Made by a program: the position numbers and the translations under genes. DNA of 58,553 nucleotides from Candidatus Deferrimicrobium sp. (GTDB lineage Bacteria; Zixibacteria; MSB-5A5; GN15; FEB-12). The stretch is taken from assembly GCA_035562415.1 (NCBI GenBank), contig DATMWY010000204.1:1-58553 (forward strand), in the 5' to 3' direction. Each line of letters begins with the position of its first letter. Positions within the stretch are counted from its first letter, which is position 1. This document shows positions 11,781-49,496 of the stretch, piece after piece. A model generated the notes under the pieces. The model was not told the origin of the DNA, made no database searches, and worked only from the letters and a program-made list of their open reading frames with translations.

Positions 11781-11923
11781 ATCATGACAATCTACACGAA
11801 GTGCCTGATATTGGCAACCGGTCTTAGATACGGCATTGACAGATTCGCTCGCGGCCGTCTCTACGATTATTTAGCACGAATAGGCAGGTTTCAAGAGAGA
11901 TGTGCCCTACGAAGAATTCACCA

Positions 11924-16673: not shown

Positions 16674-16708
16674 GGTGGTTAGGTCAGCAAGTGAGACAAC
16701 CACAATTA

Positions 16709-16733
16709 GTCATTCCTGCGAAAGCAGGAATCC
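16709..16733. repeat. Hairpin repeat, family D (GTCATTCCTGCGAARGCAGGAATCC)
   Basis: Also present at 36893-36917 and 57596-57620, with an inverted variant at 57632-57656. Confidence 0.85.
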
Positions 16734-23050: not shown

Positions 23051-23191
23051 ACGATCAATCCTCTCCTAAAATTAGAGGCGGTATTCTACCCAGACCAGCA
23101 GGTAAAGTCAACCGCCATCCAACAGACCCGCAAGGCACGCGGCCCCAGCCTGAGTGCCTCGACGATCAGCGGAACGCTGTCCCAAAAGTTT

Positions 23192-23301
23192 TGTAGGTCG
23201 GATTCCGAGTGCCGCGTTGGCGGGACGAGAAACCCGACATCTTCCGCGAAAATTGTTGTCGGGTTTCTCATCCGCCTGTGGGGGATTCGGAGCCCGACCT
23301 A
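23192..23301 (+). repeat. 110-bp MITE/REP-like element, family B, copy 1
   Basis: Terminal inverted repeat GTAGGTCGG..CCGACCTAC with nested palindromes (GAGAAACCCGACA..TGTCGGGTTTCTC). Roughly 80% identical by eye to 38930-39039, in the same orientation. Confidence 0.85.
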
Positions 23302-23348
23302 CTATCTGGAAAGGTTTGTCGTTTCCGTTCCATGTCGTAAATTGGACT

Positions 23349-24488
23349 GTGCCATTGGCCGACGTCAGACCATTTTGGAGCAGACTCATCCGAAGCCGAC
23401 GCTTTGTCGTGCCCACAATTTTTTGGGTTGCCTTTGTGCTTGGCTATGTCGTGCTCTTCAAGACTGGAAACCCAAAGTACTATTCTCTGGGCCGGATGCT
23501 GACTCAGTGGGACGGCCAGCACTACCTGTCGATCGCCCGCGATGGGTATGAGAAATATCCCTGTGCGCAGCGACCGGGCTACACCTGTGGAAATGTCGGC
23601 TGGTTTCCCTTCTACCCTCTGGTGGGGCGTGCGGTAGGCTTCGTTTTCGGTCTTTTCGGCCTCGACTTCACGGTCGCCATGCCGGCGACAAGCTGGCTGG
23701 CCTTATGGCTGGCACTGCTGGCGCTGTATCGACTGGTCGAGCGTCAGTTTGGAGACCGGCCAGCCGCCGTTTGTATCGGGACGCTGCTTCTGTTTCCCAC
23801 GTCATTTTACTACATCACGAGCTTTCCATACTCGTTGTTTTTGCTTCTCGCTGTCTGCTCGCTGGGCCTGCTGCAGTCGGAACGCTATGGACTCCTGGCT
23901 CTCCCGATTGCCTGTCTGGCGGTGACCTACCCTTCAGGAGTTGTCATAGGTATTCCCATTCTCTATACGGTCATAGTCAAGTGGCGCCACCTCGGTGCGC
24001 GCCAGAAACTCGCCCTGTTCGCCTCACTGGCGGCAATCGGCGCCGCCCTGGTATTGTACGCCGCTTACTACTGGTGGAAGTTCGATGACTTTCTTTTGTA
24101 TTTGCACTATCAGGAGCAGAGCCAGTACGCCCACCGTATTACGGTGCCGCTGCTTCCGATGATTGACTCGTTGCGGCATTGGTCATGGAAGGACCCGGCC
24201 GTGATTATGCTGATTTTCGTGTCGGTAACGATGGCCATCTTTTACTCTCGTCGTGTGCCGGTGAGTTGGATGCTGCTCATGTTTGGCATTATCCTATTCA
24301 CGCCGACGATGGGGACGATGATGTGCTACTACCGACACGTGGTGGTGGCGTTTCCCTTGTTTGTGATGGCCGGCCTGGCGTGGGAGTCTCGCCGGCGCCG
24401 CTATTTGCTGTTACCCTATGCGATTGTAGCGGCCGTTCTCACCTGGACCGTCTACCTGTTTTACTACAAAGCCGGAATGCTCATGTAG
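23349..24488 (+). CDS. Polytopic membrane protein, PIG-V/mannosyltransferase-like (GT-C)
   Basis: QWDGQHYLSIARDGYE motif after the first TM, then about 9 more TMs. The start is uncertain: GTG 23349 is proposed because the 5' part of the track ORF (from 23154) is the family B repeat. Confidence 0.65.
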   Translation: MPLADVRPFWSRLIRSRRFVVPTIFWVAFVLGYVVLFKTGNPKYYSLGRMLTQWDGQHYLSIARDGYEKYPCAQRPGYTCGNVGWFPFYPLVGRAVGFVFGLFGLDFTVAMPATSWLALWLALLALYRLVERQFGDRPAAVCIGTLLLFPTSFYYITSFPYSLFLLLAVCSLGLLQSERYGLLALPIACLAVTYPSGVVIGIPILYTVIVKWRHLGARQKLALFASLAAIGAALVLYAAYYWWKFDDFLLYLHYQEQSQYAHRITVPLLPMIDSLRHWSWKDPAVIMLIFVSVTMAIFYSRRVPVSWMLLMFGIILFTPTMGTMMCYYRHVVVAFPLFVMAGLAWESRRRRYLLLPYAIVAAVLTWTVYLFYYKAGMLM

Positions 24489-26232: not shown

Positions 26233-29200
26233 TCACTTGAGCAGCATCATTTTCCTTGTTGCGCTAAAGCCGCTCGCTTCCAGCCGATAGAGGTAGACAC
26301 CGGTGGAGACGGGTTGGCCCTGAGCGTCGGTGCCGTCCCAGGTGACGCTGTGCGCACCGGCCTCCCGGAACTCGTCCACCAGCGTAACCACGTGTTGTCC
26401 CAGAAGATTGAATACCTCCAACGCCACCCTTCCTGCATTGGGCAGGCTGAAGCTTATCTGCGTGGACGGGTTGAACGGATTCGGATAGCTCTGGTGCAAA
26501 GCAAACTCGGCCGGCAGCGCCGCCTCTTTCAATCCCTGATTGATCTGTGGCGCGATGGCGGTGTGACTCCGGTCGGACGCAAGTGCGTCCGTGATTTGCC
26601 ATTCACCTTTGAGGCGCACCAGCGGTGTCTTTCCCGCGGCGATGACGGCCTCACCTTCGAGGTCGACAATACCGACCCGAGCCGTGTTGCCGCTGGGACG
26701 GAAGAAGAACTCCATTGCGCCATCGGTCAGGCGGTCGGCGCCGGCTCCCGCTACGCCGGACAGATCCATCTGAATACCGCGTATATCTACCGGCGTTTCA
26801 ATGGAGATTACGGTTTCTCCATCGTCGTACGTGGAATTGAGGTTGAGGCCACCGTAAGTTTTCGCAGCACCCGTCGTTTGCGTCTCACCACAGTTATACG
26901 GCAGCTCGCCGCCCTGGAAGATAAAGGCCACGAGGTACGTCAGGTCGGCGATGTCAACACTGCCGGAACCGTTGACGTCGGCTTCTTCAATACACGGCGG
27001 TGCATCCCCGCCCTGGAAGAGATAGGCGACGAGGTAGGTCAGGTCAGCGACATTGACTTGATCGTTAGAATCGCCATCGACGTTGCCGCGCATGTCCTGG
27101 CAGCAGCCGGCAGCGATATCAGTAAAGGTGATTGTCGGAATGTCAGCCGCCAGGAAGTCAATGTTTCGGATAAAGTCTATCGGTACAGTGGCGTCTTCCG
27201 GTCTTATGTAAACTGCATCTCCAACGACCGGTATATCCCCATTCTCTACACGGAGAAACATCGAGTCCGTAAAGGAAAATGTGCAACCGATCTCCACTAC
27301 AAAAAGACTATCTATATACGCGTGCCAATCTCCCCACGAGTTACGTATCATCCGAAATGCCGGGCCAGTATCCCCCGTTATTCTGGCAACCAATGAATCA
27401 CCGCTATACACCAAGATCTCCTGAGTGGTGCCACCGACAGGGGAAAAGTCAGCGGAAAACTCCCATCCTGCACCTGACTTGTAACCATTAACAATTCCCA
27501 AGACTTGATCCGCGGCGATATTCGATTGCCCCACTGCCGTCACCGTTAGGGAAGCACCATCAGGAAGAGTTCCCGCCGGGTCCAACTCGAGCCACTTGGC
27601 GTCGAAGCGGCTCGCAGCACCCAGATTGATTGAGACGCCATCATCACCGCTACCTAAACGCGAGACAATCAAGTTACCACCCGATGTGTCCAGGCACGCC
27701 GTTCCAACGGAAGTGTGCTCCAGACCGAAAACACGCACCGTATCCGGTGGTGGAGCGGGGCTCGGATTGCACGGGCCGGGGACCGGATAGCCGCCGTAGG
27801 GGGCAAATACCCCGATTCCGTAGACGAAGTAGTCTTGATAGAGCTGAAGGTCAGCGGCATCAACCACACCGTCGCCATTGAGATCACAGCTATTCAGCGG
27901 GATCGGCGCCGGGCCACAACCATTGATGAAGGCAGCAAGGTAGGCCAGATCAGCGGCAGTCAGACCAACAGAGTCATTGTTGGCATCGCCATCTGCATAG
28001 CAGCCACAGCACAGTTCGACATACAATTCAATGTAGTCTACTTCGGTTTCGTCCGAGACAAACATGTCGAGATTTCCGTCCTGAAGAACGGCCAGAATGT
28101 TCGTGGGCAGCCAGGAGCTGGGCGGCAGGCTCGCAAGGTTCAGCGTGACCGTCATCTCGTCGCCTGAGTTCCACGGAGCCGGTCCTTCGTCTGGGTCATA
28201 ATTCTCCAAATCATTCAGAAGTATCGACCAGATTCTTCCGCCCTGGCTCCAGTCGCCGAGTCCCAGAAAATCTGTATAGGGCTGACCCGGGTTTGCGCGG
28301 AGATGGAGTGTAAGTAAGGCTTGCACAACCTCGCATTTTTCATGATCCCAACATCCTTCAAAGGTGTGGCCAAACCAGTCGTCAGAGGCCGGCTGGTCGA
28401 AGTTTGTAATAACCCCCGCTCCAAAAGAATTGGCGGTGGTAACCAGCCAATTATAGAGATCCGGACTCATGTAAGAAGGCTCCGGCACGTTGAAATTGTC
28501 GTTTGTCCCGTGAATACAGGTTGTTTCGGTTTGATACCAAGTCGTAGTGGCATGATGATCGCAAGAGTCGTTTCCGAAGTCTAAGCCTACGCGATTGTCA
28601 CCCCACTGCAGATTGTTGAGCGTATAGAAAACAGATAACGGAAAGGTCTGTACCCATGGTGCCCCCCCCGAAGGTATGACGTCCTCCTCAACCGTGTACG
28701 AACCCGGTGTAAGTCCGGCGAAAAGGTAATTCCCCGAGCCGTTCGTAAGCTGGATGTTTTGCCATTCCACTGTACCATTGGGCAAGAACTTTGTAAGTTC
28801 GATCGGAAAATTCGCCAAACCTGTTTCTCCGAGTCCCGGCTCCCAAAGAGAGTTGCCGTTCATGTCATGGAACTTCCTGCCGGCGATGCTGATAGGGGGG
28901 ACCTTACAGAGTTCGACTGCAATCAGGAAATTGACGTCAACCCCCCAGTTGTTTAACATCCCATCCCAAACGTTGCCAGATGTGTAGACACTTGAGCGAT
29001 TGGTGCCAATAGATCCATCATCGGAGAGTATACTTTCATACTCACCCGAACTGCCGCTGGTCGAGATGGCCACATGGAAATCACTCGTGAAAGTAAGCCC
29101 ATCCGAACTGAAATCGACCGTCGTGACTGACGGATAAGCCGAGTAAGTGCCGGGTGGAAGAATCTTCGTCGAAAGGTCCAAGTCAGGGAGTCCCCCCAAA

Positions 29201-29592
29201 TCAGACTGAGTTCTCAGGAAGATGGTATCATTTCCAAAAGTGCCGTTGCCGGGGTCATACACGGCAAAGGCCACTGTTTTCAGAGTTTCGGGAGCACCAC
29301 TGACGCTGAAACGCATGGCGTAGGCCTCGTCGCCATACACGGGGTCGGGCAGTCGCCAGTAATAATACGGCGTGATGGCATAGTTCTGCCAGTAGCAATC
29401 TGCTGACGTACTCTTTTCGAGGGGGAGGCCCGGTCGCTCCAGCCCGGCCTCAACTTCTTTCATGGGTGTCAGCTGTGCTGAGCGATTCTTGCCGGATAGG
29501 GGAAGGCTGACATCTTCTCCAGCAAAGACGCTTGCAGCCATCATCATAAGCGCGATGGCCAAAAGCCTTGTGATCAGATTATGGCGTCTCAT
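26233..29592 (-). CDS. Large secreted protein: SdrD/Cna-B-like fold, dockerin-like Ca-binding repeats, T9SS/FlgD-like C-terminal sorting domain
   Basis: 1119 aa from the ATG at 29592 (AAGGAG upstream; signal peptide MRRHNLITRLLAIALMMMAASVFA). Contains DLNGDGVVDAADL, CCQDMRGNVDGDSNDQVNVADLTYLVAYLFQGG, and C-terminal YPNPFNPSTQISFSLP..GVYLYRL. Confidence 0.85.
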   Translation of the reverse strand: MRRHNLITRLLAIALMMMAASVFAGEDVSLPLSGKNRSAQLTPMKEVEAGLERPGLPLEKSTSADCYWQNYAITPYYYWRLPDPVYGDEAYAMRFSVSGAPETLKTVAFAVYDPGNGTFGNDTIFLRTQSDLGGLPDLDLSTKILPPGTYSAYPSVTTVDFSSDGLTFTSDFHVAISTSGSSGEYESILSDDGSIGTNRSSVYTSGNVWDGMLNNWGVDVNFLIAVELCKVPPISIAGRKFHDMNGNSLWEPGLGETGLANFPIELTKFLPNGTVEWQNIQLTNGSGNYLFAGLTPGSYTVEEDVIPSGGAPWVQTFPLSVFYTLNNLQWGDNRVGLDFGNDSCDHHATTTWYQTETTCIHGTNDNFNVPEPSYMSPDLYNWLVTTANSFGAGVITNFDQPASDDWFGHTFEGCWDHEKCEVVQALLTLHLRANPGQPYTDFLGLGDWSQGGRIWSILLNDLENYDPDEGPAPWNSGDEMTVTLNLASLPPSSWLPTNILAVLQDGNLDMFVSDETEVDYIELYVELCCGCYADGDANNDSVGLTAADLAYLAAFINGCGPAPIPLNSCDLNGDGVVDAADLQLYQDYFVYGIGVFAPYGGYPVPGPCNPSPAPPPDTVRVFGLEHTSVGTACLDTSGGNLIVSRLGSGDDGVSINLGAASRFDAKWLELDPAGTLPDGASLTVTAVGQSNIAADQVLGIVNGYKSGAGWEFSADFSPVGGTTQEILVYSGDSLVARITGDTGPAFRMIRNSWGDWHAYIDSLFVVEIGCTFSFTDSMFLRVENGDIPVVGDAVYIRPEDATVPIDFIRNIDFLAADIPTITFTDIAAGCCQDMRGNVDGDSNDQVNVADLTYLVAYLFQGGDAPPCIEEADVNGSGSVDIADLTYLVAFIFQGGELPYNCGETQTTGAAKTYGGLNLNSTYDDGETVISIETPVDIRGIQMDLSGVAGAGADRLTDGAMEFFFRPSGNTARVGIVDLEGEAVIAAGKTPLVRLKGEWQITDALASDRSHTAIAPQINQGLKEAALPAEFALHQSYPNPFNPSTQISFSLPNAGRVALEVFNLLGQHVVTLVDEFREAGAHSVTWDGTDAQGQPVSTGVYLYRLEASGFSATRKMMLLK

Positions 29593-29883
29593 AGCTCTGC
29601 TCCTTGCAGTTGTGGTTACAGTGTTTTGACCTATCCAAGTCATGTTTGTCGTTGACATTGCGGTGCGGTTCATGGTTTGTCTCCATTTCCAAGTTTTCTT
29701 TAGGGTTCTTGTTAGAGTTTCAGCGTGGCCGTGCGGCCGTGATCGTCAGATTAGCGCCATCCTGTCTCTCCTCCCGCAGACTACTGGTTTCCGCATTGTG
29801 TCTCTCCTGTTTAAGGTTCGTTAATCCAGTTTCTCCATTAGTCTGCTTTGTCGCGCCATGGTTCGCAGAAAATCCGGCTTATG

Positions 29884-29912
29884 TTGACAGATGTGGTCTA
29901 TTCAGATATAAT
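29884..29912 (+). promoter_or_regulatory. Consensus sigma70 promoter TTGACA-N17-TATAAT
   Basis: TTGACA at 29884-29889 and TATAAT at 29907-29912. The ATG of the sigma-factor gene is at 29921, 8 nt after the -10 element. Confidence 0.6.
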
Positions 29913-29920
29913 TGAGCACA

Positions 29921-30460
29921 ATGAGCATCTCGGTGGCTGCCGATCTTTTAGAGCGCATTCGAGTCGGGGATCGAAAGTTTCTCGCGGAGCTGCGGCTGAT
30001 TATCGAACGGATCGCCGGCCGGTGGAAGCTTCCGGAGTGGCTGTCTGTCGAAGACGTTGCTCAGGAGTGCCTTCTCAAAGTTATGCAAAACCTCGAAGCG
30101 GGGCAGTTCGAAGGAAAATCTTCTTTTATGACCTACGTCTACGCGGTCGCGCGCAACACGTGCATAGATCATTACAGAATCGCTCAGGCCGTTGAACTTA
30201 CCGGCATCGAGGAAGTTTCATTAGAAAGTTCTGATCCGGCGCCGGACGCGCAACTGATTACATGTGATGAGCGCCGTATTGCCTGTCAGGTTTTGCTGGC
30301 GCTGCCGCGGGAGTGTCGCCGACTCTGGCGGGTAATTTTCTTTGGCCGGCACAACTATAAGCAAGCGGCTGAACAGCTTGGACTTACGGAAGGAACAGTG
30401 AAGCGCAAAATGTGGGAGTGCCGACAAATGGCGCGCGAAATGGCCGAGCGGCTGGAATAA
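29921..30460 (+). CDS. ECF-type RNA polymerase sigma-70 family factor
   Basis: 179 aa. Region 2 (VEDVAQECLLKVMQNL, FMTYVYAVARNTCIDHYR) and region 4 HTH (YKQAAEQLGLTEGTVKRKMWECR). Confidence 0.88.
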   Translation: MSISVAADLLERIRVGDRKFLAELRLIIERIAGRWKLPEWLSVEDVAQECLLKVMQNLEAGQFEGKSSFMTYVYAVARNTCIDHYRIAQAVELTGIEEVSLESSDPAPDAQLITCDERRIACQVLLALPRECRRLWRVIFFGRHNYKQAAEQLGLTEGTVKRKMWECRQMAREMAERLE

Positions 30461-30543
30461 ACCGAACCATTAGGTGGCACTGGCGACTAACTATATGTCG
30501 TATCGTAGGCCGGATGATAAACGTGCCCCGTGAGGACAAAAAG

Positions 30544-31401
30544 ATGAGTCTCGATCAACATTGCAGGCGTATTCAGGAGCAGTTTCCTCTGTTGTTCAAT
30601 TCGAGTTTGAGCAAGCAGGAAATCGCAGAGGTTCATGAGCATCTGAACCAATGCCCGGCGTGTAAGTCGATTTTCGATAAGGAGCGGGTACTTTATCGCA
30701 TAGCGGTCGGTACACAGGCCAGGTTGCTGGAAGATCATCCTGCGGCGGACTTGCTGAGTCTGTACGTTCAAGCGCCTGAGCAACTGACGGAAGCGCAAAC
30801 GACCGAGCTGGCGACTCATGTCTCTCAATGTGAGCTCTGTCAGAAAGTCGTCGCGAAAATCCGGCACCTGCCGGAGACACTGACGGACATAGCAACCGCC
30901 GAAGAGATACCTTTCATTTCCGAGCTTGATAGTATCTCATCCGCGGAACGACCGACCTCAAAGATTATCGATGCGAAGAGAAGACAATTGTGGCGATGGA
31001 CTGCCGCCGCTGCGTTGGCCGCCGCACTCGCGTTGACCGCTATTCCGCTGTTGATGACAGATCAGGACGTATCAACGGCAAAGGTGGAAGCACGGTTTGG
31101 GGCAGTGGTGCGAAGTATTGGGCAGGATTTGGTATTCGAATCCGACGACTCCTCGTTCGATTTTCATGCTATCGTCTACGTGGGTCCGGAGGAAGGGCAC
31201 AACTATGCTTTGTCCGTGACCTGGCCAGACAGGGACACCGTCCTGTACCACATAGATGCCCTGTCGGGTTTCGACAACGAAGGGTATGCTCATTGCGAAT
31301 TTCCGTTGTGGATTGGCATTTACGAGATCACCCTTCTCGACGTCGAAGCCGAGGACACGCTTTTGACGCGGTGGCCGTTTGAAGTTCGACTCAAACCGTG
31401 A
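30544..31401 (+). CDS. Anti-sigma factor, zf-HC2 (ZAS) type, single-pass membrane protein
   Basis: Two HxxxCxxC motifs (HEHLNQCPACK and HVSQCELCQK), a TM segment WRWTAAAALAAALALTAIPLLM, and a ~115-aa extracytoplasmic C-terminus. Start ATG 30544 (alternative 30514). Confidence 0.8.
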   Translation: MSLDQHCRRIQEQFPLLFNSSLSKQEIAEVHEHLNQCPACKSIFDKERVLYRIAVGTQARLLEDHPAADLLSLYVQAPEQLTEAQTTELATHVSQCELCQKVVAKIRHLPETLTDIATAEEIPFISELDSISSAERPTSKIIDAKRRQLWRWTAAAALAAALALTAIPLLMTDQDVSTAKVEARFGAVVRSIGQDLVFESDDSSFDFHAIVYVGPEEGHNYALSVTWPDRDTVLYHIDALSGFDNEGYAHCEFPLWIGIYEITLLDVEAEDTLLTRWPFEVRLKP

Positions 31402-31403
31402 GA

Positions 31404-34055
31404 TTATCTCTGTAGCCGCCATTCGCCGGTGGCCACGAACGCGCCCCATGTGTACGGATGGTCAGGCAGGTTTCGCCGGCGAATATCACTAATCTGCTTG
31501 AGCGCCACTGTTCTCATCATCTCAGCCAGACTTTTTTCCTGAGAAGAATACAAGTGCCGCATGAAGGAGACGGTCTGTTTATCGGGAACTGGCCACAGGG
31601 AACTAATAACGGTACGAGCGCCAGCCATTTGGAATGACCGGCGCAATCCATATACTCCCTCACCGGTGGTTATCACGCCGAGACCTGACTCGCACGCCGA
31701 CAGAACAACCCACTCCGTTCCATAGAGATTCATGCCGGCTACTTCGTATGCGGTCAGGATACCATCTTCACTATCAATACTGTCAGTCCCGGGTTCGTGA
31801 CAATTGGCGCCGGCCAGCAGAAGACCAGAGAGAAGCAGCGGATGTTGTCCGAGCAAATGATCATCATCAGCCGCTTTTTCGCTGACCGTCTCTCGATGCG
31901 GCGCCGGCTCAAGAAAATAGCCATGGGTCGCCAGGTGAATAACCCTCTTCCCGGATGCTTCAACTTTGAGTTTTTCCTCGCTGGCATCAGGCCCCAAATA
32001 AACACGGGTGGATTCCTGCCAGCGTGCCGCCCAGCTTTCAGCTACAGCCTGCACTTCACGGCGCGTATTGGGCAGAGGAGTTGCTTGAGCCAGGCTGAAT
32101 CCGGAAACACCTGATCGAGTTGGTATCGACGGGTAATTGACTGACATAGAGACATGCTCTGTTGGAATGGGCAGTTGCAGTGATCGGTCCGCAATTACAG
32201 CTTCATAATCAGGGTCGCCGAAGGCCAACAGGCCCGAGCCCGGCCTGGAGAGATCCTGTAATCGAATGAGGTCCCGGCCGGCCGTCAGAAAATGGACTGC
32301 GTGCCGTTCAATGAGATAGTTGTTCTGGTCATCGATCAAACTGCCGAAAGACACAATGTTTAGTGCCCCATCCGGTGCTATGAGAATGAGCTGCTTATCG
32401 CTCAGCGAGGGGAGAAGTGGTTTGAAGACTTTCTCGCTCAGCGTGCGGGCGACCTGCCGATATGCTGTCTCGTCAGCTGGTGAGGGTACGCCGGATTGCG
32501 AAAGCCTCTTGAAGTGATTTCGGTAATCCTCCACCAAAGAATCGATATCTGCCGCCGGACCGATATCTTTCAACTGAGGATTCTCGCTGGAGGACAGACA
32601 GAGAGCCAGATATCTCGGTTCGACACTGTCCCGATCGGGCAGAGTGTACTCATAGCGTACGTATTCAATAAGACCGACCGTGTCGGGAAGCAGCGACAGA
32701 ATTCGGTCAACCGTGATCGGCTTGTGTTCCTGCAAGCGCCGGAAGCTCGCGCTCCGCCGCGCGAGATCGGCTTCACGTTCCTTAATCACCGCGGCCAACG
32801 ATTCCAGAGTATCACGGAGAGGCCGGGCGTTGGGGCTTTCGCCTCTGAAATATATCCGCGCCGCCTGGCGTCTCATGAGATTGAGTTCGTCAGCGAGTTT
32901 CTGTATATCCGGATCGTTTTCAAGCACCAGGCTCTTTTGTCGTTCGAAAAGCCCCTCGGAAACCTGGCCTTTTGTGGCAACGATGATGTCACCCACGAGG
33001 AAGGGAGATGGCCGTTGGCTGTCGGGGGTGTCATGAAAACATGACAGATAATTATTAGTGAATTGACGCAGGTACCGGGAATACCTAAGGACGTCGCTTT
33101 CTGAAAGCACTCTGGCATTGTCAAGAAGGTCACGATGTGCAATGGTGACGGCACGGGAAGCCGACGCAAGCGCCCTCGTGAATTCGCCCTGCTTTCGGCA
33201 GAGCCGGCTGATTTCCTGCAAGTCCACAGCCACGTCCCTGTGAGAAGATCCGAAAGTGTGTTCGTCAATAGCCAGGCAACGCTGCAAGAGCGATTCGGCT
33301 GCCACGTAGTTGCCCTGGTGAAAGTACACGTTCGCCAGACCGCGCAGTCCGTTGCACAGCCATGGGTGATTCGCTCCGTGCACCTTTTCCCTGTTTTTGA
33401 TATGCCGCAAATAAACGTCCTCAGCTTCCGGGAATCTGCCTTGAGCGGCGTAAACACTGGCCAAACTGGCCTGCTCGGAGGCCAACTCCCGCCTCTCAAG
33501 TCCAAAATGCTTCTCCTTAATGATCAGCGCTTTTTGGAACAACTGTTCGGCTTGAACAAAATCCCTACCCGTTGCATACACGATGGCCAGGTTGTTGAAA
33601 GTGGTGATTAGGTCCGGATGATCAGCCCCAAGTTTTGTCTCCTGAATGGTCTGCGCTCGACGGTACAATTGTTCGGCGTCGGCCAATTTGTTCCAACTCG
33701 CGTATACTGCAGCCAGACCGCTCAGGCTCTTCGCGACTTCCGGATCGTCTGGTCCCAGAATTCTTTGGCGTATTTCAAGCGATTTTCTGAGGCATGACTC
33801 GGCTGCCATCTGGTTGCCCTGAAAATAGTGGCATCGCCCCAGGCTCGACCATATCCTGGCAACTATGGTGTCCTCGGGACCCAATTGGGAGGCTGCCGAA
33901 TCCAGAGCCAGTTGAGCCAGCGAAATCGAGGAATCGAACTCCCACCGTTGGTAAGCCGAGTCCGCTTGATCAAGAAGCGCTTTCCAAGTCTGGCCAACGC
34001 AGTCAACTGAAATAAAGGACAGACATATCACAAACGAGATTCGATGAAGTTTCAT
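31404..34055 (-). CDS. Exported TPR-repeat + CHAT-domain (caspase-like) protease
   Basis: Signal peptide MKLHRISFVICLSFISV. About 7 TPR units in the N-terminal third. C-terminal CHAT domain with HLATHGYF (His) and VVLSACESGLG (Cys). Confidence 0.88.
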   Translation of the reverse strand: MKLHRISFVICLSFISVDCVGQTWKALLDQADSAYQRWEFDSSISLAQLALDSAASQLGPEDTIVARIWSSLGRCHYFQGNQMAAESCLRKSLEIRQRILGPDDPEVAKSLSGLAAVYASWNKLADAEQLYRRAQTIQETKLGADHPDLITTFNNLAIVYATGRDFVQAEQLFQKALIIKEKHFGLERRELASEQASLASVYAAQGRFPEAEDVYLRHIKNREKVHGANHPWLCNGLRGLANVYFHQGNYVAAESLLQRCLAIDEHTFGSSHRDVAVDLQEISRLCRKQGEFTRALASASRAVTIAHRDLLDNARVLSESDVLRYSRYLRQFTNNYLSCFHDTPDSQRPSPFLVGDIIVATKGQVSEGLFERQKSLVLENDPDIQKLADELNLMRRQAARIYFRGESPNARPLRDTLESLAAVIKEREADLARRSASFRRLQEHKPITVDRILSLLPDTVGLIEYVRYEYTLPDRDSVEPRYLALCLSSSENPQLKDIGPAADIDSLVEDYRNHFKRLSQSGVPSPADETAYRQVARTLSEKVFKPLLPSLSDKQLILIAPDGALNIVSFGSLIDDQNNYLIERHAVHFLTAGRDLIRLQDLSRPGSGLLAFGDPDYEAVIADRSLQLPIPTEHVSMSVNYPSIPTRSGVSGFSLAQATPLPNTRREVQAVAESWAARWQESTRVYLGPDASEEKLKVEASGKRVIHLATHGYFLEPAPHRETVSEKAADDDHLLGQHPLLLSGLLLAGANCHEPGTDSIDSEDGILTAYEVAGMNLYGTEWVVLSACESGLGVITTGEGVYGLRRSFQMAGARTVISSLWPVPDKQTVSFMRHLYSSQEKSLAEMMRTVALKQISDIRRRNLPDHPYTWGAFVATGEWRLQR

Positions 34056-34580
34056 ATCGTTCAATTCTCCAGCAGTCACCGATGCCCATCAGGGTGTTGA
34101 TTGGAATATGCCTTCGGCAAAGTTGCTGCAACCACAAAGCCGAACATAAGAATAAGCGCTAAGCCTGCATAACGCAAGAGGCACGGAGTCATGGCCTCTC
34201 CGGGGTAATGTGATCAAAAGTGTGTAAGACAATATAAACCGTTACCCGCAGGAGAAGACTCAGGAGCAAGTAATGGGTAGACAGCCGAGCGTGAGTCAGA
34301 GTTGTTGCAGGTGGAAGTCAAGCTTCGTGATTACTCCCGGACGGCAGTTATCGACTCCGGAATAACAGCGGACTATCCTGAGAATAAACTGGGCCAAAGG
34401 GCTGACATGCTCACGAGTCATCCGAGATGTCCCGAATTGCTCAAGCAGGAAACTCGAAATCTTTTCCCGAACGGTTTGACAGCCGCTCAGTAATGAGGTT
34501 AAAGAGGGGACTGTATTCCGAATCCGCGGAACAGCTAAGGTCTTTTCATCGGCCCTGCTGCCCGTATCCCTAATGTCACA

Positions 34581-34654
34581 TAGCGGTGCAGGGACTCGAA
34601 CCCCGGACACGCGGATTATGATTCCGCTGCTCTAACCAGCTGAGCTACACCGCC
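34581..34654 (-). tRNA. tRNA with CAU anticodon (elongator Met, or Ile2 if lysidine-modified)
   Basis: GGCGGTG-TA-GCTC-AGCTGGTTA-GAGC-A-GCGGA-ATCATAA-TCCGC-GTGTC-CGGGG-TTCGAGT-CCCTG-CACCGCT-A. 74 nt, cloverleaf folds by hand, no encoded CCA. Confidence 0.9.
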
Positions 34655-34684
34655 ATGATCTGTTGTAAAGGCACGCGCCAATTG

Positions 34685-37029: not shown

Positions 37030-37989
37030 CTAATCGTCATGCTCCTTTTCCGGTCGAACCCATCGAACGACAGCCCGACTGAAAGCCTCAAAGTAAAGCG
37101 AAAGAAGGAGGGCACCGCCTGCAAGTACAGTAACTCCTCCGACCAATATCCACCATCCAATCGACTGGCCACTCACTACGAGACTCAGACCTATGCCTCC
37201 TAGATATTGAGTAAGTCCCCCAACTAATGCCACTGAGCCTGCGAAGATAGCAATATTAAATACTGAACGACTAATACCCGGACGCTTGGATGCTCTGATG
37301 AGGGTCCGGAGAACGTGACTTTCAAGCGCACGGATAGTATATGCACACACGAGCTGCCGATAAAAGTCGCGGCCGTCCGGCTCGTACATGTGATAGAACG
37401 TATCACCGCCATAAAACTCGTTACGAGGGTCAATGGGATCAATGGCGGCATTTGCAAAGGCAGACTTCGTCTCGTTGACTCTGTTCGGAATGACTGGTCC
37501 AAGGATATCAAAGGCCATCCGACTTGCCATACTTCTAAGTAGTACATCTCCAGTTGATAGGAACAGGCTATTGTTCTTATCAACCCCATAACCTTCATCA
37601 CGAAGGTGTGAGTGGTATTGATGAGCGAGGTCTCGAATCGTTAACAACCGACCTTTCGCTTCCTCCCGCGACGGTCTGCGGGAGCGATCTTTGCCCCAGA
37701 GGATTTCCTTAGCTTTCTCCTCAGCGAATCCAAAGTCTGCAATCACAAGATCATAAGGACCATTGCGCGATACGCGTTCGATATTTCGAATCGTTTTCTC
37801 AGAGACCTTCCAAAAACCTGGCTGCTCTGGAATTTCATCAAGCTCAACATCAACATGGTGAATATCCAATATCACCGTAACATCTTCATGAACCACACGA
37901 TGACCAGCCAACAGCTTTTCAAGTGCGACATTCATGTCCTCATCGTCGTCGATGAGTATTAGTCGGTACCGAATCATTCGCTGTCGCAT
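37030..37989 (-). CDS. Orphan protein: receiver-like N-terminal domain + two C-terminal TM helices, family unknown
   Basis: 319 aa, GGAGG upstream of the ATG. YRLILIDDDEDM and YDLVIADFGF resemble REC beta1/beta3. C-terminal hydrophobic segments VFNIAIFAGSVALVGGLTQYLGGIGLSLVV and IGWWILVGGVTVLAGGALLLSLYF. Spot G+C is lower than the flanks. Confidence 0.7.
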   Translation of the reverse strand: MRQRMIRYRLILIDDDEDMNVALEKLLAGHRVVHEDVTVILDIHHVDVELDEIPEQPGFWKVSEKTIRNIERVSRNGPYDLVIADFGFAEEKAKEILWGKDRSRRPSREEAKGRLLTIRDLAHQYHSHLRDEGYGVDKNNSLFLSTGDVLLRSMASRMAFDILGPVIPNRVNETKSAFANAAIDPIDPRNEFYGGDTFYHMYEPDGRDFYRQLVCAYTIRALESHVLRTLIRASKRPGISRSVFNIAIFAGSVALVGGLTQYLGGIGLSLVVSGQSIGWWILVGGVTVLAGGALLLSLYFEAFSRAVVRWVRPEKEHDD

Positions 37990-42101: not shown

Positions 42102-44651
42102 CTAAAACAGTATGACCAGTTTCCCGATCTGCACGCCGCCGTGCTCGTCCTCAACCGTCCAGTAATACAGTCCGGAGACGACCATCTGAGTGTTGCGGGT
42201 GACCAGGTCCCACTCTTGATAGGACGAGTTTGGGTCCGATCGGTCGAAATCATGTTCGATCGCCCGAATCAAGTCGCCGTCGAGAGAAAATATCCGGATA
42301 GTGCATCGGGCCGGCAGATTGGCGAAGGTGATTTTCCGCACTCGATCGTTTGAACGATCTTCCTCTCCCCGACCTTCATACCCCGCGTCACGGTAGCCGG
42401 CATCGCCTCGGTACGGATTGGGATAAACATAGACGTTGCCGATTTTGTCGGGAGCTTCGGCGCTCTGACTGTTCGGGTAGGCCGACAGTGCCGTTCCAGT
42501 CTTGGACGATTCCAAAGGCGCCAATTCCGACTGGGGCGAGCCGACGTCGTAGGCGGTCACGGCAATAAAGTAAGGGACACTGGACAGCAGGCTCCTGATT
42601 TCAAACTCATATTCGTAGTACTTGAGCAATCCCTCGGCCGTCAGCTGCTCCGGACGGGCCTGATCAAGCGGGCCGGGTTCGGGTTCTTCGGGACATACCT
42701 TTCTGATAGGCGTCGAAACTCCCCACTCATCCTGGTTGAAGTCATGCGCGTCAAAGTAAAAGATGGAATCCGGAAACCGAGGATGCACATACGGGTAATC
42801 GGACGTAAACCGGAGGGGATCGAAACCGCTGTCCGAACAAGGGTCTGTTCCGCGGCCGTACAGGCAGCGAAGCTGTTCCAACGTGAACGGATCCTCCAGC
42901 TGCTGAAAGCCGGGATTGCGGCGCCGTTTGGCGCTGTACACGTATTTGTCATAGTTCTCCCGGTCATACTGCGCCACGAGCGAAAAACTCGTCTCTCGCG
43001 GGTCGCGGGCTATGTAAATCCGATACCCTTCAAAATCGATCAGGTTCGAAAAGATGTCTTTTGTTCTCTCCGAAAAGGTACCGTTGAAACGAATCTTCAG
43101 ACCGCCGAGTGTCGGCGTCACCCAGAAACGAGGCGCTGGCGGAGCTTCGGCCGCCTTGAGATCGGGTATGCCGTCCCCGCGAAAGTAGGTTGTCTCCCCT
43201 TCGCACGTCACGAATTCGCCCCGGTACTCATCGCCATCGGTATCATATCCGGGAATGTCGTATACCCAATCTGCCGTCACCGCGTTATCGATCAGCGAAG
43301 AAAAATCGACGTTTCTGTAATAGGCATCGGGGTTATAACGATTGCGCAGATTCGAACTGAAATTGCTGCGCACGGAATGGAATTCCTCGCCGGCCACAAA
43401 GGCGATGGGAACGGAAATGGAACCCCCGGGGAGCAATACGTACGGCCCCGACGAGAGAAGCTGCTGCACGTCGACGCCCAGGACGACTCGTTCCGCCGCC
43501 CGCTGACTGGGCATAACCCATACCGGGTCCCAACTGCCGATGGTGCGGGCAAAGGCCTGATCATAATCCACCTCGTCGTTGCTCAAGAGCCAGTAGAACC
43601 GACGATCACCATAGGGAGTGCCGGTGCCGTTGCCCATAAAGCGGTACTTGCCGCGACTCTGCGGCCCGAAGTCAAAGTCGGGACTATAATTGTAGACCCA
43701 CCAATTGTAGGTCATGGGGCGGTTCGACGCCGCCGGATGTAAAAACCTGACCCCGGCCACGTGCGGCACCTGAAATCCCCCGCCGCTCAATGGATCACCG
43801 TCATTGTCGGCCGTCCAGGCGATGCCCAGCGTGTCCATAAACTCACACTCCCCGCGAGTAACCGCGGAGGTGAAGAGGTACCCCGACAAGTCGTCTCTGC
43901 CACCGGTGGTCCCCTTGACCCCCCATGGTTCAACTCCCCCAAGCAGGCGCTGACCCGGATGGACATCCCCGTCCCAGTACATGCCAATGTACGCGTCGCG
44001 GAGTACCTTATCCCCAATGTTGCGAATCTCGAACACGATTATAACGAAATCGTCCGTGTGGCCATACGACCAGGCATAGGAGCGTTGCGTTACTTCGAGG
44101 TTTAACGGTTTATGTCTTCGACCTTCCAGGGCATCGAACGTGGGATAAGGCCCGCGGGCCACCGTGTCGACGTATACGGCGACAAAGTCCTCTTCCGAAA
44201 CCGCCTCCAACCGATCCGGGGAGTCGAAATCGACGACCGACCTGTGCAGAAGGTCAAAGACGGGATACATCTCGCTATTGTCGTTATTAAACTGATTGGC
44301 CGTGGTCACAAGCGTGTCTCGACCGACAACGGCTCCGATCCACAGCGCCCCTTTGTACAGATACGTCGTGTTCGATCCCTTCGGATACTCCCCCAGCGGC
44401 GCCAAAACACCTGTGAAGCAGTCCAAGCGCGCTACAACTCCTCGGCCGACGCCAACGCGACCGAAATTCGTTACACCAAAAACCAATCGGCCAACGTCGT
44501 TCAAACCGAGGCAGTACGGGACCCCGGCCGCGGCTTGCCGCATTTCTTCTTCCTTCGTGTCCGAGCTCTGGCCCCCGGCATCGAGGATCATTAGCAGAGA
44601 TAACAGCGCTGAAGCTGCGAAGACTCGAGTTATTGTACGAAGCTGTCTCAC
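42102..44651 (-). CDS. Large secreted hypothetical protein with T9SS-like C-terminal domain
   Basis: 849 aa. GTG start and signal peptide (RVFAASALLSLLMILDAGG). C-terminal VYVYPNPY..ITFANLP..TIRIFSLDGDLI..GLYYW. No family recognised for the body. Confidence 0.75.
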   Translation of the reverse strand: MRQLRTITRVFAASALLSLLMILDAGGQSSDTKEEEMRQAAAGVPYCLGLNDVGRLVFGVTNFGRVGVGRGVVARLDCFTGVLAPLGEYPKGSNTTYLYKGALWIGAVVGRDTLVTTANQFNNDNSEMYPVFDLLHRSVVDFDSPDRLEAVSEEDFVAVYVDTVARGPYPTFDALEGRRHKPLNLEVTQRSYAWSYGHTDDFVIIVFEIRNIGDKVLRDAYIGMYWDGDVHPGQRLLGGVEPWGVKGTTGGRDDLSGYLFTSAVTRGECEFMDTLGIAWTADNDGDPLSGGGFQVPHVAGVRFLHPAASNRPMTYNWWVYNYSPDFDFGPQSRGKYRFMGNGTGTPYGDRRFYWLLSNDEVDYDQAFARTIGSWDPVWVMPSQRAAERVVLGVDVQQLLSSGPYVLLPGGSISVPIAFVAGEEFHSVRSNFSSNLRNRYNPDAYYRNVDFSSLIDNAVTADWVYDIPGYDTDGDEYRGEFVTCEGETTYFRGDGIPDLKAAEAPPAPRFWVTPTLGGLKIRFNGTFSERTKDIFSNLIDFEGYRIYIARDPRETSFSLVAQYDRENYDKYVYSAKRRRNPGFQQLEDPFTLEQLRCLYGRGTDPCSDSGFDPLRFTSDYPYVHPRFPDSIFYFDAHDFNQDEWGVSTPIRKVCPEEPEPGPLDQARPEQLTAEGLLKYYEYEFEIRSLLSSVPYFIAVTAYDVGSPQSELAPLESSKTGTALSAYPNSQSAEAPDKIGNVYVYPNPYRGDAGYRDAGYEGRGEEDRSNDRVRKITFANLPARCTIRIFSLDGDLIRAIEHDFDRSDPNSSYQEWDLVTRNTQMVVSGLYYWTVEDEHGGVQIGKLVILF

Positions 44652-47991: not shown

Positions 47992-48019
47992 GACAGGATT
48001 AGACGATGACCCAGATTCC

Positions 48020-48724
48020 ATGAATTATAGTATCTATTGTGACGAAAGCTGTCACTTGGAAGGGGACCACCACCCCATCATGGTCCTGGGCGCAGTTTGG
48101 TGTCCCACCTCTTTGACGCGGGCGATTTTCAATCGCATACGAGAAATTAAAATTCGGAATGGATTGAGTCGTGAGTTTGAAGTCAAATGGACGAAGGTTT
48201 CCCCTTCTAAAAACCAAATATACCGTGACCTGCTGGATTATTTCTTTGATGACGACCACCTACATTTCAGATGTCTAGTTGCTGAAAATAAGTACAACCT
48301 GCAACACACCCTGTTTGGTCAGGACCATGATACTTGGTACTACAAAATGTATTTTAATTTGCTGAAAGTGATACTCTCTCCGCACGACACCTTTAGGATC
48401 TACCTCGATATCAAGGATACTAGGTCCGAAAGCAAAGTCGCCAAGTTGCGCGATGTCTTATCGAACAACATGTACGATTTTCAGCGTCGGATTATCGAGC
48501 GAATACAGACCGTCAGATCACATGAAGTGGAGTTAATTCAGCTTGCCGACCTCTTAACTGGGACTATTTCATACTTAAATCGCGGTATTTCGACCAATGA
48601 GGGAAAACTAGCTCTCGTAACACGGATGCAGGAACGTTCTGGCTATCAGCTCACTCAGACCACACTCCTTAAAGAAGAGAAATTAAATCTCTTCAAGTGG
48701 AAACCGGTGCTGCCAAAGTCATGA
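48020..48724 (+). CDS. DUF3800-family protein
   Basis: 234 aa. N-terminal IYCDES acidic motif, C-terminal VELIQLADLLTGTISY. Starts 28 nt after the pdxS stop. AT-richer than the flanks. Confidence 0.8.
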   Translation: MNYSIYCDESCHLEGDHHPIMVLGAVWCPTSLTRAIFNRIREIKIRNGLSREFEVKWTKVSPSKNQIYRDLLDYFFDDDHLHFRCLVAENKYNLQHTLFGQDHDTWYYKMYFNLLKVILSPHDTFRIYLDIKDTRSESKVAKLRDVLSNNMYDFQRRIIERIQTVRSHEVELIQLADLLTGTISYLNRGISTNEGKLALVTRMQERSGYQLTQTTLLKEEKLNLFKWKPVLPKS

Positions 48725-49203
48725 ACGATGAAGTTTCGTGGCTTCCGTCTCTGGTGTTTCTGAGCGCATTCGACGGTGATTGGGAAAGGTACGTGGAGCA
48801 ACTCTACACGTATTTCAAGCAAGATTTCGTCTATTCGCCACCGTTCTTTCGAGGCCAGCGCATCGGGTTAAAGAGGTTTCCCATAACCAAAGGCAAGGAG
48901 GCAACCTTCTGGCACCTAATATCGACTGGTACCAAAGAGCATTATCGGTATCCGGACTTGCGCCGTTGCGAACGAATTAGATGGCCAAGAGCGATCATTG
49001 AGAACGCCGAAGATTCAGTAGTGAAAACCTGGGAAAACATAAGAAATGGCGAAAGGCGCCAGCTTCTCTGGCTGGAACAGCATGAATACTTGGTGATTCT
49101 CGCGCGAAGGGCTGGCTACGCGCTACTTTGGACAGCGTACTTGGTAGATACGTCGCATCAAAGGCGAAAGCTTCAGCAAGAATTCGAGGAATTCCATCAT
49201 TGA
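48721..49203 (+). CDS. Hypothetical protein, translationally coupled partner of the DUF3800 gene
   Basis: 160 aa. Its ATG overlaps the upstream TGA (ATGA at 48721-48724). Protein-like composition (FWHLISTG..RCERIRWPRAIIEN..YLVILARRAGYALLWTAYLV). No family recognised. Confidence 0.7.
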   Translation: MNDEVSWLPSLVFLSAFDGDWERYVEQLYTYFKQDFVYSPPFFRGQRIGLKRFPITKGKEATFWHLISTGTKEHYRYPDLRRCERIRWPRAIIENAEDSVVKTWENIRNGERRQLLWLEQHEYLVILARRAGYALLWTAYLVDTSHQRRKLQQEFEEFHH

Positions 49204-49311
49204 TTAAAAGGCTGACGCCGCCCCGTTTCCGGAACGGCGTCGTTACTCCTTCTACGCATGGTAGATGAGCTTTTTGCTTAATCAACACTTAATATCGTAT
49301 TACTTTAACAC

Positions 49312-49340
49312 TTGTCAAGTACTTCTCAAGTATTTGACAA
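49312..49340. promoter_or_regulatory. 13-bp imperfect palindrome (operator-like) overlapping a TTGACA hexamer
   Basis: TTGTCAAGTACTT-ctc-AAGTATTTGACAA (12 of 13 complementary). TTGACA lies at 49334-49339 and a TATAAT at 49386-49391. Confidence 0.45.
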
Positions 49341-49496
49341 ATTCTTTTGCAGCCTAAGGACAGCCTCGCGTTCAGAAGCTGCACTTATAATGTACATAAT
49401 CTGCTATCGTTTTGAGATATAAGCAGTTACAGGGATCTCGCAAACGACTGAATTGTGATACCTCAATCTCTTCGACTCGAAGTATCTTTCATATCC

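Follow-up and report, generated by a model that had tools for sequence, protein, structure and literature searches.

We describe here a conserved, probably regulatory cassette in a 58,553-nucleotide stretch of DNA from Candidatus Deferrimicrobium sp. (contig DATMWY010000204.1 of assembly GCA_035562415.1; the whole stretch is referred to below as the window). Its core consists of three adjacent genes, which encode a sigma factor of the extracytoplasmic function (ECF) type, a single-pass transmembrane anti-sigma factor and a predicted protease that joins tetratricopeptide repeats (TPRs) to a CHAT domain. The conserved unit is best described as a four-gene cassette, which also includes a divergent gene for a type IX secretion system (T9SS) cargo protein, and we propose that it serves in envelope signaling. 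Functional coupling, of some kind, of the CHAT protein to the sigma/anti-sigma pair is in our assessment clearly probable. The full proteolytic model, in which the cassette would be a split, two-polypeptide and trans-acting switch of the DdvA type and the CHAT protein would cut the anti-sigma factor, falls only a little short of an even chance. The four genes are located as follows.

26233–29673, minus strand: T9SS cargo gene, 1146 aa, divergent from the sigma gene
29921–30460 (alternative start 29912), plus strand: ECF sigma gene, 179 aa
30544–31401 (ATG at 30544), plus strand: anti-sigma gene, 285 aa, single-pass protein
31404–34055, minus strand: TPR-CHAT gene, 883 aa, convergent with the anti-sigma gene

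In the list of open reading frames (ORFs) of the window, 2 nt separate the convergent stop codons of the anti-sigma and TPR-CHAT genes. A first-pass annotation of this DNA had described three ORFs at exactly these positions, with the same 2-nt gap and with no Cas genes. All of this agrees with our analysis, which found no Cas partners beside the module. The cargo gene was overlooked at that stage, as was the output predicted from the promoters, namely the T9SS cargo gene together with the anti-sigma gene.

Conservation of the gene arrangement

The anti-sigma sequence is poorly conserved: a word-indexed search returned one or two relatives, and an exhaustive profile search about 30 full-length cluster representatives (clustered at 50% identity). 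The contig of the sole word-search relative stops 143 nt past the anti-sigma gene, and within those 143 nt a convergent CHAT protein is represented by its final 46 residues (ending in LPDHPFTWGAFIASGDWHMRR and a stop codon), 1 nt from the anti-sigma stop. The same three-gene arrangement surrounds the close CHAT homologs P0004 and P0010 and the anti-sigma representatives P0150, P0123 and P0149. A genome scan with the sigma alignment yielded 13 loci from species-representative genomes, and 11 of the 12 informative ones contain a sigma gene, an anti-sigma gene and a convergent CHAT gene. When anti-sigma sequences were collapsed into lineages at 70% identity, a convergent TPR-CHAT gene was found in 16 of 17; two anti-sigma factors with divergent C-termini fell on contigs too short to inform linkage. 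The first-pass annotation had asked that CHAT genes be sought beside homologous sigma/anti-sigma pairs, and the linkage was kept when this check was run. The linked loci comprise the window, L001, L003, L004, L007, L010, L011, L013–15, L017–23, L027 and L106. The gap between the anti-sigma and CHAT stop codons is 1–14 nt in most of them and 57 nt at its maximum.

Related architectures extend beyond this set. Three loci (L025, L026 and L032) show the same architecture with variant anti-sigma factors, and the more distant CHAT homologs P0079 and P0122 combine it with different anti-sigma factors, while the arrangement is absent around P0025. A sample of 79 metagenomic CHAT relatives at 25–49% identity contained 58 informative loci, of which only 2, both among the closest relatives, had this arrangement. 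The linkage is therefore a trait of part of the CHAT family, roughly those proteins at least 35% identical to the window protein, and not of TPR-CHAT proteins generally. Unlinked paralogs are interleaved with linked ones (for example P0025 at 45%, L028 at 41% and L030 at 39% identity, as well as tandem second copies in L003 and L004). These second copies (L003 5014–7872 and L004 5029–7872) lie in tandem directly upstream of the module-linked copy, are about 46% identical in the CHAT domain and retain the catalytic dyad. In L016, the exception among the anti-sigma lineages, a small forward ORF whose N-terminus is lipoprotein-like (…LLMAGVIQTAC…) follows the anti-sigma gene at 11468–11772, after which the contig ends.

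Such a pattern might be expected without any functional link if the loci simply share the ancestry of a chromosomal neighborhood in a narrow group of uncultured bacteria. All loci do come from related lineages of metagenome-assembled genomes, mostly labeled Zixibacteria, “Ignavibacteriales” or unclassified, and flanking genes are partly common to some of them, for example L003 and L004. However, the outer flanks differ widely around the retained core, with restriction–modification genes and a transposase in L007, acetyltransferases in L106 and acyl-CoA carboxylase genes in the window, and the arrangement remains intact at anti-sigma identities to the window protein down to 27%. Shared ancestry also fits poorly with the variant modules, in which other anti-sigma factors appear in the same architecture, and with the independent fusion of both functions in Myxococcota (PMC11506125). 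We therefore consider it very improbable as the sole explanation.

Promoters and the predicted regulon

Three promoter candidates were identified in and around the sigma gene.

29884–29912, plus strand: sigma-70-type promoter, TTGACA-17-TATAAT, matching the consensus at 12 of 12 positions (promoter scan)
29838–29864, minus strand: P_cargo, ECF-type promoter candidate, exact match to GAACC-N16-GACTAA, directed toward the cargo gene
30464–30490, plus strand: P_anti, ECF-type promoter candidate, exact match to GAACC-N16-GACTAA, between the sigma and anti-sigma genes

The −10 box of the sigma-70-type promoter ends 8 nt before the sigma ATG in the window, and about 14 of 16 related loci have a TATAnT box 6–9 nt ahead of that start codon (window and positions in L001–L022). 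Because the −10 box lies so near the start codon, a leaderless sigma mRNA driven by the housekeeping sigma factor is implied, and the ECF sigma factor would be made constitutively. In several related loci, the sigma start codon is GTG.

The ECF-type motif occupies two fixed positions. P_anti is situated 4 nt after the sigma stop and 54 nt before the anti-sigma ATG. In the 58.5 kb of the window, GAACC-N16-GAC(T/C)AA has two perfect matches, both in the module, against an estimated 0.06 or so expected by chance. Across 237 kb of related loci, the motif is almost confined to the anti-sigma and cargo positions: 17 of 18 related loci have it ahead of the anti-sigma gene (24–58 nt upstream of the start) and nearly all loci ahead of the divergent cargo gene (typically 150–175 nt upstream of the ORF). 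A weight matrix built from 27 sites matched nothing upstream of CHAT in 12 of 13 loci; L004 had a single borderline site. CHAT was accordingly dropped as a member of the regulon. Since the motif stands before the anti-sigma and cargo genes but, in these 12 loci, not before CHAT, the protease seems to be an input of the circuit and not an output. The sigma factor presumably recognizes GAACC-N16-GACTAA, with the cargo gene as its predicted output. Extra copies of GAACC-N16-GACTA were noted in L004 (about 16690–16716, plus strand), L018 (about 6345–6371, minus strand) and L007 (about 11762–11788, plus strand); the L004 copy lies before a second T9SS cargo gene, the L007 copy before a 272-aa gene of unknown function. 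The regulon may be wider than one cargo gene.

The cargo protein of the window combines SdrD_B-like repeats with two dockerin-type modules and has a Por_Secre_tail/FlgD_ig sorting domain at its C-terminus (Pfam, NCBIfam). Its true start may be at 29592, since the signal peptide begins at Met28. A T9SS-type cargo gene is found divergently upstream of the sigma gene in nearly all related loci, usually with Por_Secre_tail and often with dockerin-type modules. Its domains vary by locus and include Peptidase_C10, papain-like C1 with PKD, S8, Laminin_G_3, SdrD_B repeats and BNR/sortilin. L007 has a transposase at the cargo position but retains its sigma, anti-sigma and CHAT genes. The variable cargo and the L007 transposase thus define sigma, anti-sigma and CHAT as the core, with an exchangeable output. 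A cohesin-like partner for the dockerin modules was considered and dropped; no cohesin was present among the matches, and the cargo domains vary. The leader between P_cargo and the cargo start measures about 160–240 nt (about 150–175 nt, a similar length, at other loci), and in the window this 5′ untranslated region carries the 10-mer TGTCTCTCCT twice (29763–29772 and 29799–29808), 36 nt apart. A search of the intergenic regions against Rfam matched no family.

The near-constant presence of secreted cargo raises an alternative, in which the TPR-CHAT protein matures, quality-controls or degrades periplasmic T9SS cargo, the periplasmic beta-sandwich of the anti-sigma factor (see below) senses a ligand, a metal or secretion stress, and the genes are united by a shared function in secretion. 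It would account for a T9SS cargo gene at almost every locus and for the close CHAT paralogs that exist without sigma and anti-sigma genes, and the beta-sandwich, in which acidic and His residues are conserved, does resemble binding domains of the CopC, cupredoxin and Ig-like kinds. Yet the cargo domains vary widely where the CHAT protein and the beta-sandwich are constant, CHAT does not share the promoter motif common to the cargo and anti-sigma genes, and the tightest adjacency is that of CHAT with the anti-sigma gene (mostly 1–14 nt) and not with the cargo gene. L007, which keeps the core with a transposase in place of the cargo gene, likewise speaks against a protease dedicated to cargo, and we regard this alternative as unlikely.

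Neither the window (31396–31410) nor the related loci show a terminator-like sequence between the anti-sigma and CHAT stops. With stops mostly 1–14 nt apart and no room for a terminator, the convergent transcripts should overlap, and we infer that sigma-driven anti-sigma transcripts would run antisense into the CHAT gene.

The TPR-CHAT protease

The 883-aa product of the convergent gene matches CHAT (1.8e-62, covering residues 534–877), TPR_12 (4.7e-52), TPR_10 and TPR_NPHP3 in Pfam. It is organized into the following segments, with a helical linker that continues from the TPR solenoid to about residue 454.

33993–34055, minus strand: Sec-type signal peptide, residues 1–21 (MKLHRISFVICLSFISVDCVG, followed by QTW), from inspection and hydropathy
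33108–33986, minus strand: TPR solenoid of the kinesin light chain (KLC) type, residues 24–316, about 7–8 repeats, from Pfam, KLC structure matches and model helices H24–H316
31425–32678, minus strand: CHAT domain, residues 460–877, from Pfam CHAT, with the dyad codons checked

The catalytic dyad is formed by His711 in HLATHGYF (codon 31923–31925) and Cys788 in LSACESG (codon 31692–31694), and is invariant in 21 module-linked sequences and 44 homologs. A search of PDB sequences retrieved kinesin-light-chain TPRs only. The AlphaFold model (predicted TM-score 0.80) matched Csx29 first in Foldseek (8eey_B, E 5e-14, target-normalized TM-score up to 0.59), followed by DdvA (8rw5 and 8rot, about 1e-12) and separase (about 6e-11). 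The protein thus unites a caspase-fold domain and its His–Cys dyad with a TPR superhelix and a likeness to solved members, as expected of a TPR-CHAT protease, and it is predicted to be an endopeptidase.

All CHAT orthologs begin with a basic and then a hydrophobic stretch, which is followed by a small-residue site and a mature start of the form W-x-E-L-x-x-A-D-S. A hydropathy scan of the CHAT protein found no membrane-like segment beyond the signal peptide. The orthologs are therefore predicted to be exported by Sec, with the mature protein in the periplasm. A reading as an outer-membrane lipoprotein was dropped, with a Cys after the hydrophobic segment in a few orthologs only.

The anti-sigma factor

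The anti-sigma factor matches zf-HC2 (9.1e-07, above its cut-off), and its closest solved relative by sequence is RsiW. An AlphaFold model with a mean predicted local distance difference test (pLDDT) score of 86 places, in order, the helices of a zinc-binding anti-sigma (ZAS) domain at residues 2–56, a second unit at 68–108, a low-confidence linker, a transmembrane (TM) helix at 144–171 and a beta-sandwich at 179–283.

30544–30717, plus strand: ZAS unit 1, residues 1–58, candidate ligands Cys7, His33, Cys37 and Cys40, matching RsrA and RsiW
30721–30897, plus strand: ZAS unit 2, residues 60–118, with His92, Cys96 and Cys99, an internal duplicate of unit 1
30973–31056, plus strand: TM helix, residues 144–171, an AlphaFold helix and the only 19-mer above 1.6 on the Kyte–Doolittle scale
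31078–31392, plus strand: periplasmic beta-sandwich, residues 179–283, about 105 aa, eight strands, pLDDT about 95

Sequence comparison of 29 family members showed that His33, Cys37 and Cys40 are invariant and that Cys7 is at least 90% conserved. With HxxxCxxC and an upstream ligand in an N-terminal helical domain, whose helices at residues 2–56 are modeled confidently, the protein belongs to the class I anti-sigma factors of the ZAS (zf-HC2) type and is predicted to bind zinc and the sigma factor. The motif is present twice, as HLNQCPAC (residues 33–40) and HVSQCELC (92–99). The two ZAS units align with an hhalign probability of 96% (E 2.8e-9) and, judged by this similarity, are an internal duplication. 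The first-pass annotation had called the duplicated ZAS motif unusual, which does not stand. Two HxxxCxxC motifs about 59 residues apart are present in most of the best 150 cluster representatives from the anti-sigma profile search, and the second is gone in 7 of the 29 family members and absent from the single-ZAS variants L025 and L032. The duplication is therefore genuine, yet it is a common feature that the module can do without.

The hydrophobic segment (about residues 149–171) is bordered by Lys/Arg on its N-terminal side and by acidic residues on its C-terminal side. Together with the signal peptide on every CHAT protein, this TM helix with its C-terminus out predicts that the protease and the anti-sigma tail occupy the same side of the membrane. 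In the beta-sandwich beyond the membrane, Arg190, Tyr221, Gly247, Gly258, Asp266 and Asp271 are invariant among the 29 sequences, and this domain is retained in the single-ZAS variants L025 and L032 although their cytoplasmic part differs. Foldseek with the anti-sigma model returned just generic Ig-like, RhoGDI, CopC and cupredoxin folds at E values of about 3e-3 or weaker, and no specific family. Weak fold matches and the conserved His219, Glu216, Asp244, Asp266 and Asp271 hint faintly at a metal-binding, CopC-like sensor role. A chagasin-like protease inhibitor, which appeared at rank 27 only, was dropped as a reading of this domain.

Arg190, encoded at 31111–31113, lies in the loop after strand 1, about 19 residues past the membrane. 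The Arg site is present in 20 of 20 locus sequences, and the residue after it is always Ser, Gly, Thr, Asn or Ala.

The ECF sigma factor

The sigma protein contains Sigma70_r2 (3.4e-11) and r4_2 (3.3e-05) domains in Pfam and scores 80.6 bits against TIGR02937 (sigma70-ECF; cut-off 42.9), which makes the 179-aa protein a member of the ECF (group IV) sigma-70 factors. NCBIfam holds no specific equivalog that it matches at cut-off. Orthologs are 46–56% identical, and the closest solved relatives are SigW and RpoE; no DdvS chain is among its PDB matches, so that it is not detectably close to that protein. Cys81, Cys132 and Cys167 are invariant in six aligned orthologs, in a TCID and two ECR contexts. 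Three invariant cysteines are unusual for an ECF sigma factor and could point to a protein that is itself sensitive to redox conditions or metals.

At the level of the individual proteins, the first-pass annotation agrees closely with these results. Its ECF sigma call is borne out by the Sigma70_r2 and TIGR02937 matches, its single-pass anti-sigma factor with both zinc motifs and a tail of about 115 aa by the model (114 aa), and its exported protein with about seven TPRs and a CHAT domain retaining His and Cys by Pfam, hydropathy and motifs. Its placement of the protease and the anti-sigma tail on the same side of the membrane holds as a prediction, and the cytoplasmic location of CHAT that it named as a refuting outcome was not supported.

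A model for signal transduction by the cassette

In the model that we propose, the anti-sigma factor would hold the sigma factor in the cytoplasm and display its beta-sandwich in the periplasm, where the TPR solenoid of the protease would bind a signal in the form of a protein or peptide. Once activated, the CHAT domain would cut the periplasmic domain of the anti-sigma factor, with the position after Arg190 as the candidate site, and a site-2 protease and cytoplasmic proteases would clear the remaining anti-sigma factor, as for RsiW and RseA. The freed sigma factor would transcribe from GAACC-N16-GACTAA, with the cargo gene as the output, and the second sigma-dependent promoter, which drives the anti-sigma gene alone, would act as a negative-feedback reset. 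In this scheme, we infer the contact between CHAT and the anti-sigma factor, the proteolysis at Arg190, the subsequent regulated intramembrane proteolysis (RIP) and the nature of the signal.

The proteolytic model is favored by the synteny across deep divergence, the predicted co-location in the periplasm, the invariant dyad and the fold shared with separase, craspase and DdvA. It gains further from the position of CHAT outside the regulon, from the relatedness to SigW/RsiW, a pair controlled by RIP, and from the independent fusion in DdvA. A more detailed version is correspondingly more tentative, and we give it noticeably less than an even chance: the free periplasmic TPR-CHAT protein would be a dedicated site-1 protease that acts in trans, cuts after the invariant Arg and couples an extracytoplasmic protein signal to the expression of single T9SS-secreted enzymes, with a reset through the anti-sigma promoter.

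Several observations weigh against proteolysis of the anti-sigma factor by CHAT. The choice of Arg190 as the cleavage site is a guess, and only about seven residues separate the membrane from the folded beta-sandwich, with no long flexible linker of the DdvA type. Mutation of the DdvA dyad caused no phenotype in the conditions used, and CHAT activity and signal are undemonstrated in that system (PMC11506125). Close CHAT paralogs lack a sigma/anti-sigma neighbor (L024, L028, L030 and the second copies in L003 and L004), from which it follows that the protease family has other roles. L016 is an exception to the linkage, with 305 nt left after its anti-sigma gene and no CHAT C-terminus there. Finally, the anti-sigma and CHAT genes are convergent and are therefore not co-transcribed, and the promoter assignment is based on motif shape and position.

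Some of these points would be met if TPR-CHAT were a non-proteolytic partner of the anti-sigma factor, either in the manner of RseB and RseA or as a co-receptor, that attaches to the beta-sandwich and relays a signal through binding or release, with its protease activity aimed elsewhere (at the signal protein or at itself) and another protease making the site-1 cut. The synteny, topology and promoter data fit such an arrangement equally well, KLC-type TPR solenoids are peptide-binding modules, and both the silent DdvA mutants and a beta-sandwich almost directly at the membrane, an awkward position for a site-1 cut, are easier to reconcile with it. On the other hand, His and Cys are invariant in all linked orthologs, and catalysis is therefore under selection in this context. 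Moreover, both characterized TPR-CHAT/sigma systems use inhibitor proteolysis, whether shown or proposed (PMC10028731, PMC11506125). On balance, we think that a purely non-proteolytic role has a minor chance of being correct, and we retain the cleavage of the anti-sigma factor by CHAT as our working model.

Other features of the window

The remaining window is ordinary chromosome, with genes for efflux and MacB-type ABC systems, polysaccharide export, acyl-CoA carboxylase and cytochrome c maturation. Models for Cas proteins, for the cyclic oligonucleotide-based antiphage signaling system (CBASS) and for other defense systems matched nothing in the window (PADLOC returned a generic TPR model only). 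Cas7-11 (gRAMP), Csx30/Csx31 and CRISPR arrays were likewise absent beside the module, both in the window and in every related locus. Without PADLOC support and without Cas or CBASS neighbors, the module was dropped as a candidate defense system. A tRNA-Met (CAT) gene is located at 34580–34655 on the minus strand, about 525 nt past the CHAT start, and the interval between the two (34.1–34.6 kb) contains no convincing ORF. The N-terminus of a 319-aa ORF (37030–37989, minus strand) resembles a receiver domain (DDDED…), and the C-terminal membrane segment of this ORF is hydrophobic and Gly-rich. The ORFs at 42102–44651 (minus strand, 849 aa) and 23154–24488 (plus strand, 444 aa) have no Pfam match at E ≤ 1e-5. 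The G+C content is 0.476 at positions 48001–50000, compared with 0.53–0.60 elsewhere in the window.

Comparison with known systems

TPR-CHAT proteases that control ECF sigma factors are already known from two recent systems, and what is new in this analysis is the ECF-type promoter motif at two fixed places and the sigma-70 promoter of the sigma gene, which implies a leaderless mRNA. The predicted circuit combines a constitutive, leaderless sigma factor with an anti-sigma gene that alone, and not the sigma gene, stands behind a sigma-dependent promoter, and with a protease gene in tight convergent orientation. Such a design departs from the positive autoregulation that is usual in ECF operons, and pulse-like or adaptive responses would be expected of it.

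The general scheme is familiar from RIP. In RsiW/SigW (PrsW, RasP) and RseA/sigma-E (DegS, RseP), an extracytoplasmic protease triggers the process (PMC10028731, PMC11506125). The window module shares with these systems a single-pass anti-sigma factor and sequence relatedness to SigW/RsiW and RpoE. It differs in its proposed site-1 protease, a caspase-fold TPR-CHAT protein in place of the membrane metalloprotease PrsW or the serine protease DegS, and in the ECF-type motif, which precedes the anti-sigma gene only and not the sigma gene.

A CHAT neighbor has also been described for the actinobacterial ECF54 group, in whose conserved gene neighborhood CHAT, subtilase and carboxypeptidase proteins are found (PMC8999054, PMC7826278). 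Both cases involve an ECF sigma factor conserved beside a CHAT-domain protein, with proteolytic control proposed. Whereas ECF54 lacks an anti-sigma factor and the sigma factor itself is the proposed substrate, a canonical ZAS anti-sigma factor is present here.

In the polysaccharide utilization loci of Bacteroidetes, ECF sigma/anti-sigma pairs receive their input through a TonB-dependent transducer and a FecR-like anti-sigma factor, without CHAT proteins. In Porphyromonas gingivalis, PorX/PorY-SigP controls type IX secretion, and SigP acts on the genes of the T9SS machinery (PMC4800418). The cassette resembles both in linking an ECF sigma factor to the control of secreted or surface proteins in T9SS-bearing bacteria. 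PorX/PorY-SigP takes its input from a two-component system, likewise without a CHAT protease, whereas the predicted target of the cassette is an individual cargo gene and not the secretion machinery. Its apparent targets, in bacteria mostly labeled Zixibacteria, are single secreted proteases, lectin-like proteins and adhesins, and it offers a first view of how uncultured T9SS-bearing bacteria may control individual secreted proteins.

Closer in its components is the type III-E craspase (Cas7-11, Csx29, Csx30 and CASP-sigma), in which a TPR-CHAT protein is likewise tied to an ECF-type sigma factor through its inhibitor and the cut falls in a cytoplasmic inhibitor (PMC10028731). In contrast to the window protein, which has a signal peptide and no Cas genes beside it, Csx29 is cytoplasmic, RNA-activated and bound to Cas7-11, and Csx30 is not a ZAS transmembrane anti-sigma factor. 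The first-pass annotation had taken type III-E as its model. The general logic and the fold likeness to Csx29 support that comparison, but the nearest precedent is DdvA/DdvS.

M. xanthus DdvA unites a ZAS domain, a TM helix and a periplasmic TPR-CHAT region in one chain; it becomes exposed to RseP without the TPR-CHAT region, for which a function as site-1 protease was proposed, and the fused form is reported from Myxococcota and one Comamonas species only (PMC11506125). In DdvA-type proteins, a three-helix motif is missing, and the otherwise incomplete active site is complemented between the partners of a dimer. In common with DdvA/DdvS, the window module has a cytoplasmic ZAS domain, a single TM helix, an ECF sigma partner and a TPR-CHAT protein that carries the His/Cys dyad and is predicted to be periplasmic, and in both systems CHAT is suggested to act as the site-1 protease before a cleavage of the RseP type. 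In all of the linked loci (at least 19), TPR-CHAT is a separate soluble protein with a signal peptide, encoded on the opposite strand, and the anti-sigma factor of the window ends in a small periplasmic beta-sandwich of about 105 aa and carries the tandem ZAS duplication. The predicted regulon consists of T9SS cargo and anti-sigma genes where that of DdvA is a CBASS/CRISPR island, and the hosts are not Myxococcota but uncultured bacteria with T9SS sorting domains on their secreted proteins. The module would work like DdvA/DdvS yet stands outside that family, whose single-chain architecture it does not have.

Full-text searches of a literature collection returned no description of a split form of a DdvA-like system. 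If the more detailed version of our model holds, the cassette would give the first two-component “split DdvA”, with an experimentally separable protease and substrate. Taken together, these comparisons identify the module as a split relative of the known TPR-CHAT/sigma logic rather than as a system of a new kind. It carries that logic outside phage defense and outside Myxococcota, and as a naturally split version, with protease and substrate on separate polypeptides, it makes the idea of cleavage directly testable.

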